From Octopus vulgaris (Eukaryota): DNA of 64,000 bases. Location of the stretch: the NCBI GenBank assembly GCA_951406725.2, contig OX597827.1, positions 47,988,001 to 48,052,000 on the forward strand, given 5' to 3'. The first letter of the stretch is position 1. Every line of letters starts with the position of its first letter. Both the position numbers and the translations under genes were made by a program. Below are positions 6,820 to 32,505 of this stretch, in pieces. Under the pieces are notes generated by a model. The model was not told where the DNA came from. It did not search any database and saw only the letters and a list, made by a program, of their open reading frames with translations.

Positions 6820-7585
6820 ATATATTAATAAAAAGAATTCCAACCTTGTCTGATTTTCACGTTTTATTTACAATCTTATAATGATATATTATAAGATAAT
6901 ATATTATAATTGAATAAAATAAAATGAAATAGTAGAATGTTAAATATTCATTCTGATTGAACTAGTACTTTCATGCATTGAATTCTGCAATCTTCGGGTT
7001 CATGTAGTAGTGTTGACAGTCATGCTTCACAATTTTTGACTGTAGCAAGATGAGTGATTCTGTGCTATAAATACAGCTGGGTAGGCTCCAGAGTGCTAGG
7101 TTTTGCAAACTGTATTCTGACCAATCAGTGTGTAGTATCACTCAATTACTTAAGCTGATTGGTTGGTTGAGCTGATTGGTTTAGGCATCACGCTTTGTTG
7201 GACAGGTCAAGAGTCCTGTATCTTGACCCTGGCCGAAGCAGCAATTGTTGGGTTATTTTTAGAAATGTTGTAAATATCCTTTGTCAGAGATTTTTATATT
7301 TTTATATTTCAATTGTCATCATCATCATTGTCAGCACCTTAATTATTGTTGCTAGTGGTGATGGTGGTGGCAATAGAACTTTTAACCCTAAATAAGATAA
7401 TTTTCCTGCTATCTTCGTCTTGATCACCTTTAGTATTGTTGTTGTTGTTAGTGGTCATGGTCGTAGCAGTGGAAGTAATACCTCTAAGTATTATTATTAT
7501 TGCTTATTTAGCTTGGGTTCGAATTTATCAATAAAATTCTTTTCTCTGATTTTCCTCTCGATTTCACTTGGGCTGTGTAATTTGT
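6820..7585 (-). repeat. Inverted copy of PLE 3' end / pseudo-LTR
   Basis: Reverse complement of 9217-9982; no mismatch noticed by eye. The identical 66-aa spurious ORF appears in both arms of the ORF track. Confidence 0.95.
6958..7002 (-). ncRNA. Mirror copy of the PLE hammerhead motif
   Basis: Reverse complement of 9800-9844 inside the inverted arm. Confidence 0.7.
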
Positions 7586-9305
7586 GATTTCAACACACCA
7601 CAACTCACTTACGGATAATGAAAAAGACTACATCACCAATTTTGAACCAAAACCCAGCAACTTCTACGGCTTACCAAAAATACACAAATCAAAAAACATT
7701 CAACAGGCAGTAAAAGAACAAGAAAGTGAGTACATAAAATTATTACATCCAAAAGACCTAAAACTTAGACCTATTATAGCTGGTCCAGCATGCCCTACAC
7801 ACCGTCTAAGCAATTTTATTGACATTGTTTTGAAACCACTATGTACTTACATACCAAGTTTCATCAGGGATGACATCGACTTCCTGTCCCATCTTCCCAA
7901 AACAACAGAAACAAATTCAGTTTTACTAAGTTTTGATGTGGTAAGCCTCTACACCAATATTCCACACGATTTAGGAATAAAGGCGATTAAATACTGGTTA
8001 GAAAAACATAGAGAAGTGATTCCCAGCAGATTCACAGTGCCATTTATATTAGACACAGTCAAACTTATTCTAGAAAATAACACATTCTTCTTCAATGGAA
8101 AGAATTACATCCAAATTAGAGGCACGGCGATGGGAACGAGGTTTGCTCCCGTTTACGCCAACTCTGTAATGGGATACTTAGAAGAACAACTCTACCAAGA
8201 GGTGGAGGTAAACTATGGCACTGGATTTAGAAAGTATATTGAAAAGGCATGGAAGAGATACCTAGACGACTGTTTCATAATCTGGACAGAATCTCTAAAT
8301 ACTCTGGAAGAGTTCAATATCCTCCTGAACAACCTACACCCATCTCTCAAATTTACAAAGGAGATGAGTAGTACCAAATTACCATTCCTGGATATAATGG
8401 TAATTAAAAAAGACACCACCATCACCACAGATATATACTATAAACACACAGACACACATCAATACCTAAATTTTAAGTCGTGCCATCCACCACATACAAA
8501 ACGTAACATCCCATACTGCCTAGCCAGAAGAATTTGTACTATTGTAGAAGATGCAAATATCAGGAACAAACGCCTAATAGAACTAAGAGAATTTTTGCTC
8601 AAACAAAAATACCCATCTCTACTTATAGAAAATGGCATACAGCGGGCTATAAAAATACCTATACAACAACTTAGGACAACCCAAGGAAGAGGAAAACAAG
8701 AACAAGTCATACCATTCATAGTGACACACAACCCATGTCACCAGAATATCTTCAACATTGCCAAAGCAAACCTACCAATCATTGCCCAAAGTAATGAATT
8801 AAAAGACATAATCAAGGATCGAGCTATGGTACTTAGTAAAAGACAGCCTAAAAACTTGAAAACATTACTAACAAAGGCAAAATTTGACCTCAGCAACAAA
8901 GACCAAACATTCACGGTATCTAAATGCAATGATAGCCGATGTGGCACATGCCAATTCATACATACCGGTCAATATATAAACACAAAAACCGGGAAAATAT
9001 TCACAAACGCGAATATGAACTGCAAAAGCAGAAATTTAATTTACTGCATCAAATGCCCAAATTGTGAAGAAATATATGTAGGTCAGACGGGAAACGCACT
9101 ATTAGAACGCTTACGTGTACACCGGCAACAGATTAGAGACCCAGAGGTCCGTCAGATACCTTTGAGTAACCACCTAGCAACATGTGGTCGGAAAATATAT
9201 ATAATATTTCCATTCTACAAATTACACAGCCCAAGTGAAATCGAGAGGAAAATCAGAGAAAAGAATTTTATTGATAAATTCGAACCCAAGCTAAATAAGC
9301 AATAA
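7584..9305 (+). CDS. PLE reverse transcriptase + GIY-YIG endonuclease (uninterrupted, 5'-truncated at the inversion junction)
   Basis: FYGLPKIHK, LRPII, SFDVVSLYTNIP, GTAMG, RYLDD, LPFLD; Cys linker CNDSRCGTC (Neptune-type); NLIYCIKCPNC..YVGQT..R..H..H..E..PKLN. The GTG start lies on the junction and is not a true start. Confidence 0.93.
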   Translation: MISTHHNSLTDNEKDYITNFEPKPSNFYGLPKIHKSKNIQQAVKEQESEYIKLLHPKDLKLRPIIAGPACPTHRLSNFIDIVLKPLCTYIPSFIRDDIDFLSHLPKTTETNSVLLSFDVVSLYTNIPHDLGIKAIKYWLEKHREVIPSRFTVPFILDTVKLILENNTFFFNGKNYIQIRGTAMGTRFAPVYANSVMGYLEEQLYQEVEVNYGTGFRKYIEKAWKRYLDDCFIIWTESLNTLEEFNILLNNLHPSLKFTKEMSSTKLPFLDIMVIKKDTTITTDIYYKHTDTHQYLNFKSCHPPHTKRNIPYCLARRICTIVEDANIRNKRLIELREFLLKQKYPSLLIENGIQRAIKIPIQQLRTTQGRGKQEQVIPFIVTHNPCHQNIFNIAKANLPIIAQSNELKDIIKDRAMVLSKRQPKNLKTLLTKAKFDLSNKDQTFTVSKCNDSRCGTCQFIHTGQYINTKTGKIFTNANMNCKSRNLIYCIKCPNCEEIYVGQTGNALLERLRVHRQQIRDPEVRQIPLSNHLATCGRKIYIIFPFYKLHSPSEIERKIREKNFIDKFEPKLNKQ

Positions 9306-9622
9306 TAATAATACTTAGAGGTATTACTTCCACTGCTACGACCATGACCACTAACAACAACAACAATACTAAAGGTGATCAAGACGAAGATAGCAGGAAA
9401 ATTATCTTATTTAGGGTTAAAAGTTCTATTGCCACCACCATCACCACTAGCAACAATAATTAAGGTGCTGACAATGATGATGATGACAATTGAAATATAA
9501 AAATATAAAAATCTCTGACAAAGGATATTTACAACATTTCTAAAAATAACCCAACAATTGCTGCTTCGGCCAGGGTCAAGATACAGGACTCTTGACCTGT
9601 CCAACAAAGCGTGATGCCTAAA

Positions 9623-9736
9623 CCAATCAGCTCAACCAACCAATCAGCTTAAGTAATTGAGTGATACTACACACTGATTGGTCAGAATACAGTTTGCAAA
9701 ACCTAGCACTCTGGAGCCTACCCAGCTGTATTTATA
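9623..9736 (+). promoter_or_regulatory. Putative pol II promoter in the pseudo-LTR (3 CCAAT boxes + TATA-like)
   Basis: CCAATCAG at 9623 and 9640, ATTGG at 9677, TATTTATA at 9729-9736, ~65 nt upstream of the hammerhead. Confidence 0.4.
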
Positions 9737-9799
9737 GCACAGAATCACTCATCTTGCTACAGTCAAAAATTGTGAAGCATGACTGTCAACACTACTACA

Positions 9800-30263: not shown

Positions 30264-30370
30264 ATTTCTTACTGATGAATCTAAGGGCCTATGGTAGATT
30301 GGCTTGATTTAATTTAATCAGGTTAGTTTTCCATTAAACTGAAGATGAAACGGTGCATCGTCTAAGAAAT
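30264..30370 (+). ncRNA. Type I hammerhead ribozyme, canonical core, extended stem II (predicted cleavage after 30362)
   Basis: ATTTCTTA-CTGATGA-ATCT..[~19-bp G.U-rich hairpin 30291-30334]..AGAT-GAAA-CGG-TGCA-TCG-TC-TAAGAAAT: 8-bp stem I, 4-bp stem II base, 4-bp stem III, GUC triplet. Confidence 0.88.
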
Positions 30371-30755
30371 TACAGGGTAAATGTTTTTCAATTTTCTCCT
30401 GGTTTACGGAATTGACATTATTTTGCGGTTAAAGCTTTTGGCTGTTATTTCTAGTGGGTGAATGGCCTATTATGGCCGTTCCTTGATTGTTGATGTTGAA
30501 CTTAAAAATGGTTTATGACTATTTAATTTTTTCCCACTAGGCCGCTGGTGGCAAAAGAATTCTACAAAATTTTTTTGGCACCCTATATTGATTAATTATG
30601 AATTTTCTGGTTAATTCCGTAATGGAATCGGCGGCTTATATTTATTTGCTGCCGATAAATTTGGCGCGAGTGCGACGATTTGAAAATTTTAGGTCAGATA
30701 TTGACGAGGTAGCAATGAGAATGCCTCGTGAAAAATATCTGTTCCGGTTTTGGCT

Positions 30756-30862
30756 ATTTCTTACTGATGAATCTAAGGGCCTATGGTAGATTGGCTTGAT
30801 TTAATTTAATCAGGTTAGTTTTCCATTAAACTGAAGATGAAACGGTGCATCGTCTAAGAAAT
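30756..30862 (+). ncRNA. Second tandem copy of the hammerhead (predicted cleavage after 30854)
   Basis: Same sequence 492 nt downstream; CTGATGA at 30764-30770. Confidence 0.88.
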
Positions 30863-32505
30863 TACAGGGTAAATGTTTTCAATTTTCTCCTGGTTTACGG
30901 AATTAACGTTATTTTGCATCGTCTAAGAAATTACAGGGTAAATGTTTTTCAATTTTCTCCTGGTTTACGGAATTGACATTATTTTGCGGTTAAAGCTTTT
31001 GGCTGTTATTTCTAGTGGGTGAATGGCCTATTATGGCCGTTCCTTGATTGTTGATATATATATATATATATATACATGTACATACTAGCTGAATAAACAA
31101 ATACGTACACGCATACATTTATATATATGTACATACACACACGCACACACACACACACATATGAATATATAGTTATGCATTATACATGACTGTGTAAATA
31201 TGTATATAATGTATGTATGGAATATATGTTCATGTTCATGTGTGTGTGTCTATATTATGTTTATTTATATACCTCTATATGTATGTATATATATGTGTAT
31301 ATATATATATACACTCTCACATACAGACACACACATACATACATTCGCACACACACATACACACATATATATATATATATATATATATACATACACCCGT
31401 AAATATATATATATACAGTTGTATATAGAATATGGAAGATGGATAGAAATGGAAGGGAAAGAAAGAGCGGAAGATAAGATTTATTTATATACCAACGGTA
31501 TGAAGGCAAATCAAACTATATTCTAAATTTTGGAAATTGTTTCACTCGAAATCAACATCATTTCCTACTGATGGTATTAGATGTACTACTATGGAAATGT
31601 CCATTTATCAATTGGTTGGACGTATGTACATTTAAGTAAATGGAAGCTATTATTCGTCCAATTTTCAGCTTTATTGTCTTTAGTACCTAATTGCGGTTTC
31701 TAATTTTAATTGAATTCAAGATGGCGTCCTTTTACATCTTCCTGTTTTCCCCTCTTTCTTTGTCTTCAGATAGTTAATTCCTCCTCTGAAAACCCCAATA
31801 TTCTTGCTGTCGTAGTTCATATAATGAACGGGAATAAAAAATATATTATTTCTCATTTGTGTACGTCTAGGCTCTGATTAATAAAATGTACAAATATATA
31901 TACTGACCAGAAATGAAACAAATTATACAATCAAACGCGTTACAGATGACAATACGTTTTACTGTATGATGTTGTTCGGTTTGTACTCTAAAACAGATAA
32001 AATGTAATTGCGAATAAACGAAAACATTTTAAACGCAGTCGAAATATATATAATACAAAGCAAAATATATCAATGCACATACAATGATCAAAACAAAATT
32101 TATTCGTACACAGTTATTGTAGGAAAATATATTTATACATTTTAAATGTCTTTCAATGCAACTTTTTCAACTTTAGACAAGAGGATGTTCGACACACTTT
32201 TTTCTGTGATTTGCATACGTATGGCTAATGTATACGCTCACACGCAGAGAGAGGGAGAGAGAGAGAGAGATGCAGGGAGAAAGAGAAAGTGAGACAGAGA
32301 GAGAGAGAGAGAAAGAGAAGCAATGAGAGAGAGACGCTATGTTCGCTACCAACACGATGAATATTTGGGGAAAGGTTTAATGGGTAGGATGATATTCATC
32401 TAATTTTAACCCTAGGTAATTTGAACGCGTTTGGAAGTTACAAAGCGGTAAGGAGAATAGGCGGTGTATATGTGAATGTAGGTGTGTATGTGTGTGTGTG
32501 TGTGT

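Follow-up and report, generated by a model that had tools for sequence, protein, structure and literature searches.

Metazoan retrozymes that lack long terminal repeats (non-LTR retrozymes) are non-coding tandem units of a few hundred nucleotides with low GC content and one type I hammerhead ribozyme per unit, found in dispersed arrays (PMC7229834). Cervera and de la Pena (2020, PMC7229834) named Penelope-like elements (PLEs) as strong candidates for their helpers, and retrozymes as non-autonomous dependants of PLEs are the title claim of bioRxiv 10.64898/2026.07.22.740005. The endonuclease-containing (EN+) PLEs, i.e., the Neptune/Nematis type and the Naiads, are treated by Craig et al. (2021, PMC8557442). 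[quoted passage not shown] Dimer-type hammerheads of PLEs are described in PMC4209133. For the Poseidon PLE of Anolis, Frangieh et al. (2024, PMC11167929) report in vitro cutting and extension of both strands, with two internal RT starts that bound the tail; the protein is predicted to be a dimer, and ribozyme cleavage is not needed for insertion.

Here, we study a 64,000-nt stretch of the Octopus vulgaris genome (GCA_951406725.2, contig OX597827.1, positions 47,988,001 to 48,052,000; "the window"), in which a coding PLE (PLE-1) lies together with units of two non-coding hammerhead families of 492 and 399 nt, along with related copies from the 2.8 Gb assembly. Judging from their sequences, we put at roughly 85% the probability that the 492-nt family, and less surely the 399-nt family, are non-LTR retrozymes that a TA-targeting PLE of this genome, not necessarily PLE-1, copies in trans with its RT/GIY-YIG protein. 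That is, the class of the helper is indicated but its family is not. Like the metazoan retrozymes of PMC7229834, both families consist of head-to-tail units of a few hundred nucleotides, each with a type I hammerhead motif. At 492 nt, the larger unit is longer than the range of 150-450 bp stated in that work, and expression and circles were shown for those retrozymes, while the octopus families are described here from DNA sequence.

Insertion ends of PLE-1 and of the 492-nt family

The PLE-1 frame in the window (7581-9305) encodes an RT, a CX4CX2C linker and a GIY-YIG domain. Pfam scores RVT_1 with 27.8 bits (under the cut-off of 29.6) and GIY-YIG with 29 bits (over its cut-off). The translation contains a CxxC within the GIY-YIG core, such that the element has the RT and C-terminal GIY-YIG with CCHH of EN+ PLEs. 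It also shares their partial tandem and inverted insertions, a hammerhead in the terminal repeat and, with 33 nt, the expected tail length. The linker between RT and endonuclease, a motif common to Neptune and Nematis, suggests, by motif, that PLE-1 is of one of these two types. Named homologues of the protein come mostly from molluscs or mollusc symbiont assemblies, and no named Neptune references are among them.

A full PLE-1 unit comprises 4271 bp and occurs in tandem at locus L159. Here, a 454-aa upstream frame (unit positions 67-1365) overlaps the 775-aa RT frame (1274-3600) in the -1 frame, where a U-run resembles a slippery site. Frames of about 1200 aa, the length expected of a fusion of both, are present in a few copies of the genome. 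We considered this layout as new and rejected the idea, since it is already in the legend of Fig. 1 of PMC8557442. The family is very young, i.e., 40/40 scored 3' ends (of 1193 candidates) and 125/125 scored RT stretches are 100% identical.

We name the two 3' ends of insertions A (short) and B (long, with the tail). In PLE-1, A lies about 139 nt past the position at which the ribozyme is predicted to cut, and B follows 33 nt beyond A; the stretch between them is the tail known from published PLEs. Two-ended inversions make up ten of 35 insertions, and all ten combine one A with one B. The window copy is one of these ten, and its left end is therefore 6794. The preliminary description of the window had taken the element as a forward body behind an inverted copy next to (TA)n, which holds; its left limit of 6820 has to be moved outwards through the 33-nt tail. 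The inverted copy 5' of the frame matches the 3' 766 bp of PLE-1 with 100% identity.

The 492-nt element of the window (29683-31053) was likewise correctly described as an inverted arm followed by a forward body, the whole flanked by (TA)n left and right. Its two ends do not fall at the same unit position (left about +230, right about +128, with positions of the 492- and 399-nt units counted from the predicted cut), and its forward arm holds a local duplication of 69-70 bp (30846-30987). The same asymmetry is found in a first sample of 38 loci plus the window copy, taken from the 150 matches listed among 264 in all (40 candidates out of 1103 were scored). Tail-out inversions make up 36 of these 39 loci and all 36 pair A with B (p = 1.5e-11 compared with free pairing), with one end at unit position 128-133 or so (range 112-136) and the other at 230-241. 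Outer ends lie at (TA)n in 39/39 and 37/39 cases. This is far above chance: of randomly drawn positions, 5-7% run into (TA)4 within 10 nt, the (TA)n runs being dense here.

Since this sample is biased to long copies, we drew two further ones from exact 492-(TA)n junction patterns, which have hundreds of matches genome-wide (371 forward for A, 602 forward for B; reverse counts are inflated by overlap) and none for the controls. Among 25 A-anchored loci, 17 are A+B, 3 are inverted with the other arm broken, 4 are single-armed and 1 is unresolved, with no case of A+A. The third sample holds 20 B-anchored loci picked for having no exact A match (about 31 such loci by hand count); 10 of them are A+B, 1 ends near A and 9 are single-armed, with no B+B. 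One adjacent insertion at the edge of a locus (L122) was excluded from the counts. Pooled over all samples, 63/63 two-ended inversions are A+B, i.e., the family has two fixed 3' ends about 100 nt apart and uses one per arm.

Copies are 86-100% identical to the reference unit, and the hammerhead core is present in 150/150 full units. These units differ by 2.25 substitutions when compared within an arm, by 2.16 when the two arms at one locus are compared and by 4.86 across loci. Differences within and between arms are thus alike and lower than between loci, so that both arms derive from one template or source. Arrays reach about 11 units and run on across the predicted cut site; their 3' ends are fixed and internal while 5' ends vary. 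Some arrays are uniform, whereas four (L123, L133, L147, L151) repeat private variants with a period of 2 or 4, which fits a multimeric template or a later block duplication. A possible excess of 5' ends at the predicted cut was dropped, as 3/28 ends in the less biased 399-nt sample and about 5/75 arms of the 492-nt family (hand counts) are not clearly over chance. The stretch between A and B of the 492-nt unit is predicted to form hairpins (z = -5.2 for the circular unit, 40 shuffles), which might shorten the spacing of its ends.

The 399-nt family, ribozyme motifs and further elements

The 399-nt unit of the window sits between TA runs at 21848-22418, as had been noted, the left run being part of a short interspersed nuclear element (SINE). 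Among 56 distinct insertions of this family, 53 stop at one fixed site about 172 nt past the cut and touch (TA)n there, and the variable 5' end touches TA in 39. That the two families share little except the ribozyme could be confirmed: their alignment score is reached by 3/200 shuffles with the ribozyme included and by 67/200 without it. A common block just past the cut is visible, but the alignment outside the ribozyme is not significant, so we do not count it.

Loci of both families are spread over many contigs, their 3' ends being fixed while the 5' ends vary, which points to dispersal by mobilisation and not only to local satellite growth. Read as circles, the units contain no frame over 68 aa, and they have no LTR structure. 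The preliminary description had asked whether a full PLE open reading frame (ORF) is attached to such units; none is joined to a unit in the 128 fetched loci (some of them overlapping). PLE-like hits near three loci (L005, L317, L327) lie hundreds of bases off across other sequence and are not counted as attached. The nearest-neighbour divergence reaches 0 for 492-nt copies and likewise for 399-nt copies, such that their age, as had been suggested for comparison, overlaps with that of the identical PLE-1 copies. Among the runs listed as containing the sequences, none is recorded as RNA. Contigs of four runs presumed to be RNA contain the 492-nt unit and PLE-1; they are silent on level, ends and circles.

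PLE-1 and the 399- and 492-nt units contain recognizable motifs of type I hammerheads whose helix III is short and palindromic. Within the 399-nt subfamilies, one stem I pair is C-G in 43, A-U in 21 and unpaired in 5 of 69 motifs, and stem II is replaced between subfamilies; these compensatory changes support a selected hammerhead fold. Pair 10.1/11.1 reads A-U in the 492-nt unit, A.C in the main 399-nt subfamily and G-C in the other. Compared with shuffles, monomer folding is better for the 492-nt motif alone (z = -4.2) and no better for the other four motifs. An Rfam scan of the window gave no hammerhead among 150 listed of 212 matches, only microsatellite-driven microRNA matches.

All units had been said to carry type I hammerheads and to sit in (TA)n. 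For the two short fragments of the window (Table 1) this has to be revised in part. The fragment at 63211 is indeed flanked by TA on both sides, but the one at 33806 has TA only on its 3' side. The former had been taken for a parasitic ribozyme family; it is the truncated 3' end of a second coding family, PLE-2, whose 4483-bp unit encodes RT and GIY-YIG and matches the fragment with 98.6% identity over 215 nt. The core of the PLE-2 hammerhead reads A6->U in 28/28 parsed copies. Many short PLE-2 copies (the window fragment and loci L211-L240) share a near-identical 5' start, often with small local duplications. This may mark a point where the RT stops strongly, although the query itself favours such copies. 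The fragment at 33806 belongs to an abundant hammerhead family of about 215 bp (3152 first-look candidates) with a fixed 3' end at TA in at least 24/30 copies and no attached ORF seen in the loci examined; the window copy has G8->A, the family majority being intact.

A third coding family, PLE-3 (L251-L276, L387-L405), is young as well, with a 781-aa frame, many identical copies and a tail of about 37 nt. Its two-ended inversions are A+B in 5/5 cases among 19 loci. By eye, its hammerhead-like motif has U3/A8 instead of C3/G8. Beside PLE-2, the GIY-YIG loci (30 read; 150 of 6136 candidates scored, i.e., the top-scoring copies) form 8 PLE-like clusters, one locus of which hints by eye at a tail of about 60 nt.

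Table 1. Hammerhead-bearing elements of the window, their arms and predicted ribozyme motifs (positions within the window)
Feature	Position	Strand	Remarks
PLE-1 inverted arm	6794..7585	-	outer end is B, with the 33-nt tail at 6794-6826, adjoining (TA)n 6729-6793; a hammerhead motif lies near 6958-7002
PLE-1 forward arm	7585..9976	+	5'-truncated, positions 1881-4271 of the 4271-bp unit; end A adjoins (TA)n 9977-9998
PLE-1 type I hammerhead motif	9800..9844	+	predicted cut after 9839; U-U at pair 10.1/11.1
399-nt family insertion	21848..22418	+	1.43 units; starts at predicted cut, ends at the single fixed 3' end against (TA)n
399-nt hammerhead motif	22179..22252	+	predicted cut after 22246
Short extra copy of the 492-nt B end	29683..29714	-	about 60 nt of TA-rich sequence between this copy and the inverted arm
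492-nt inverted arm	29774..30129	-	ends at B; small deletion in the hairpin before B; predicted hammerhead cut site 29985
492-nt forward arm	30127..31053	+	motifs of two hammerheads, spaced by 492 nt, with cuts predicted after 30362 and 30854; end A adjoins (TA)n that begins at 31054
Copy of the ~215-bp minimal-hammerhead family	33806..33996	+	(TA)n on the 3' side only; G8->A in this copy
PLE-2 3' end, 5'-truncated	63211..63427	+	between TA runs; second coding PLE family, 4483-bp unit

Further repeats surround these elements. A long interspersed nuclear element (LINE) at 1089-4627 (+) has an intact 1087-aa frame with RVT_1 and zf-RVT followed by (AAT)n; from its motifs, we take it to have a restriction-like endonuclease and R4/Dong affinity. 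Decayed LINE relatives adjoin (TTA)n arrays near 16000-17100, 49100-50000 and 51800-53900. An abundant SINE of about 430 bp (57690-58100, 11918-12350, 21640-21849) has an internal TA run and often TA on both flanks. A 2-kb tandem duplication (57645-59623 and 59646-61581, 96.8%) carries SINEs and partial copies of the 33806 family. Finally, a two-copy tandem of 146 bp lies at 62235-62525 and an imperfect palindrome of 240 bp at 37143-37384.

Which enzyme copies the units

We consider the insertion geometry, not the contact with TA, as the diagnostic sign. TA preference is weak evidence because a hammerhead-free SINE, used as control, also touches TA. Poly(A) tails or target-site duplications of another LINE class, or no TA preference, had been named in advance as contrary signs; no poly(A) tails were seen on the units, and their TA contact exceeds the background. 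The 492-nt family shows the whole PLE footprint, i.e., two fixed internal ends, a tail on one arm, inverted pairs and a TA target, and follows the strict A+B rule common to the coding PLEs. PLE-driven mobilisation is thus highly probable for this family. For the 399-nt family, which has the fixed internal end at TA, we regard it as probable with moderate support. The earlier proposal that PLE proteins mobilise several ribozyme families in trans is therefore well supported for one family and less so for the other.

Several observations weigh against this interpretation. All locus samples are top hits or first-listed matches. The best alignment of the units to PLE-1 has an E-value of 0.06; in a shuffle test against PLE-1, 26/100 and 98/100 shuffles reach the scores of the two units, and no homology was found to PLE-2 or to the ends of the 30 sampled GIY-YIG loci, an incomplete sample. 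A and B are about 100 nt apart in the 492-nt family compared with 33-37 nt in the PLEs, and inversions are more frequent (20/25 A-anchored loci vs 10/35 for PLE-1 and 5/19 for PLE-3). The SINE control has TA at the 3' end in 16/29 copies and at 9/17 located 5' ends. With regard to the 399-nt family, a single insertion of 56 is inverted (L406, complex and hand-picked), and it has no second fixed end. That is, this family matches the PLEs in target and polarity but not in two-end geometry, and of the common target and geometry proposed for all elements, the inverted geometry applies to the 492-nt family and the PLEs.

Mobilisation by a PLE could proceed as follows. The endonuclease would cut both strands of (TA)n, and each target end would prime reverse transcription on the same template RNA, one at A and the other at B. 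This RNA may be a circle or an uncut multimer. The two cDNAs would then be fused head to head; the point of fusion varies and mostly shows overlaps of 0-8 nt or short inserts, while one-sided priming would leave a plain 5'-truncated copy; the 399-nt RNA would offer a single usable start. As in Poseidon of Anolis (PMC11167929), the hammerhead lies upstream of the RT starts, which are predicted ones in the octopus units, and targets are AT-rich. Poseidon belongs to another clade, however, and its starts are adjacent, in a stem-loop that is AC-rich and not homologous to the target, and no passenger RNA is involved there, while the octopus RNAs have short AU matches at their predicted starts. A more specific and tentative model, to which we give somewhat less than even odds, is that a dimer of the PLE RT-endonuclease takes up a single RNA at two fixed start sites and uses both ends of the cut (TA)n as primers simultaneously. 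The 492-nt RNA, which has no sequence kinship to the sampled PLE ends, would mimic the loading site by its fold alone (a structured tail of 100 nt) and undergo double priming at about three times the rate of the PLEs, with some copies made from multimeric circles, whereas the 399-nt RNA would have kept one start.

Given a PLE as helper, PLE-1 itself is the obvious candidate: it is very young with intact frames, ends in (TA)n, follows the A+B rule, and the distance from its ribozyme cut to end A (about +139) is similar to that of the 492- (+128) and 399-nt units (+172). PLE-3 with its many identical copies obeys the same rule, however, and with PLE-2 and the 8 clusters several TA-ending families coexist, none of which, as sampled, resembles the units. 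PLE-1 is therefore only one candidate, and we think it unlikely to be the specific helper that the preliminary description made of it. The inversion rate does not separate PLE-1 and PLE-3 in this respect. Naiad-type PLEs, reported for cephalopods (PMC8557442), are outside our sampling of helpers. A related question is the origin of the units, which might derive from the pseudo-LTR (pLTR) of an extinct or unsampled PLE with its start sites kept. This is compatible with PLE-driven copying and has been proposed for Xenopus retrozymes, where 24 of 57 families matched to transposable elements show pLTR homology (bioRxiv 10.64898/2026.07.22.740005). The layout from ribozyme to end resembles a pLTR, and tail lengths of PLEs may differ, given the single locus with a longer tail. 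On the other hand, the loci fetched here lack an attached PLE ORF, and a relaxed ribozyme pattern gave copies of a 399-nt subfamily but no PLE in the loci examined, although the GIY-YIG sample covers top-scoring copies only. Such an origin is conceivable, but we lean against it.

Mobilisation by a LINE, e.g., the restriction-like-endonuclease element at 1089-4580 or the partner of the SINE, with inversions by L1-type twin priming, can draw on the intact LINE frame in the window and on the SINE's frequent TA ends, and would suit the 399-nt family better than the 492-nt family. But the window LINE copy ends in (AAT)n instead of (TA)n, the units lack visible poly(A), and none of 29 SINE copies is inverted. 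Twin priming of L1 yields a fixed end on one side and an inverted end that varies, while the 492-nt family has two fixed ends. We thus consider a LINE as very improbable. Still more strongly disfavoured is a spread on the DNA level (Helitron-like rolling circles, foldback elements or miniature inverted-repeat transposable elements, satellite recombination) or an assembly foldback artefact. Tandem arrays, the hairpin before end B and the variants of period 2/4, possibly later local duplications, would fit the former. However, neither A nor B is an inverted repeat of the other end, the 5' ends are variable, the A+B asymmetry is repeated over hundreds of loci and agrees with that of the coding PLEs, and the junction of the 492-nt B end with (TA)n is also present in contigs of two independent runs.

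Implications for retrozymes and PLEs

The element classes and the idea of PLE helpers are already known, and the footprint adds evidence and a test system rather than a new kind of system. The preprint on retrozymes as PLE dependants (bioRxiv 10.64898/2026.07.22.740005) rests on co-occurrence and pLTR homology, mostly in vertebrates, and we saw no analysis of insertion ends in it; here, a footprint is shared in the absence of homology to the sampled PLEs. The words "inverted" and "microsatellite" do not occur in the text of PMC7229834. Likewise, the strict rule of one short and one long end and a 100-nt tail on a non-coding passenger are not in the passages of PMC8557442 that we draw on. We found no report of a two-start footprint in retrozymes in the literature that we searched, though subscription journals or preprint supplements may hold one.

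Arguments on the enzyme behind the spread of animal retrozymes have drawn on co-occurrence and partial homology. A footprint common to a non-coding RNA and coding PLEs provides an independent line. It makes the helper question testable, i.e., with young intact PLE families, a 492-nt RNA with two predicted starts (+128, +230) and a 399-nt RNA with one. How inverted PLE insertions form is stated as open in the PLE literature. If the dimer model is true, the 492- and 399-nt families would be a natural experiment on this process, and on how a ribozyme circle captures the enzyme of a retrotransposon.

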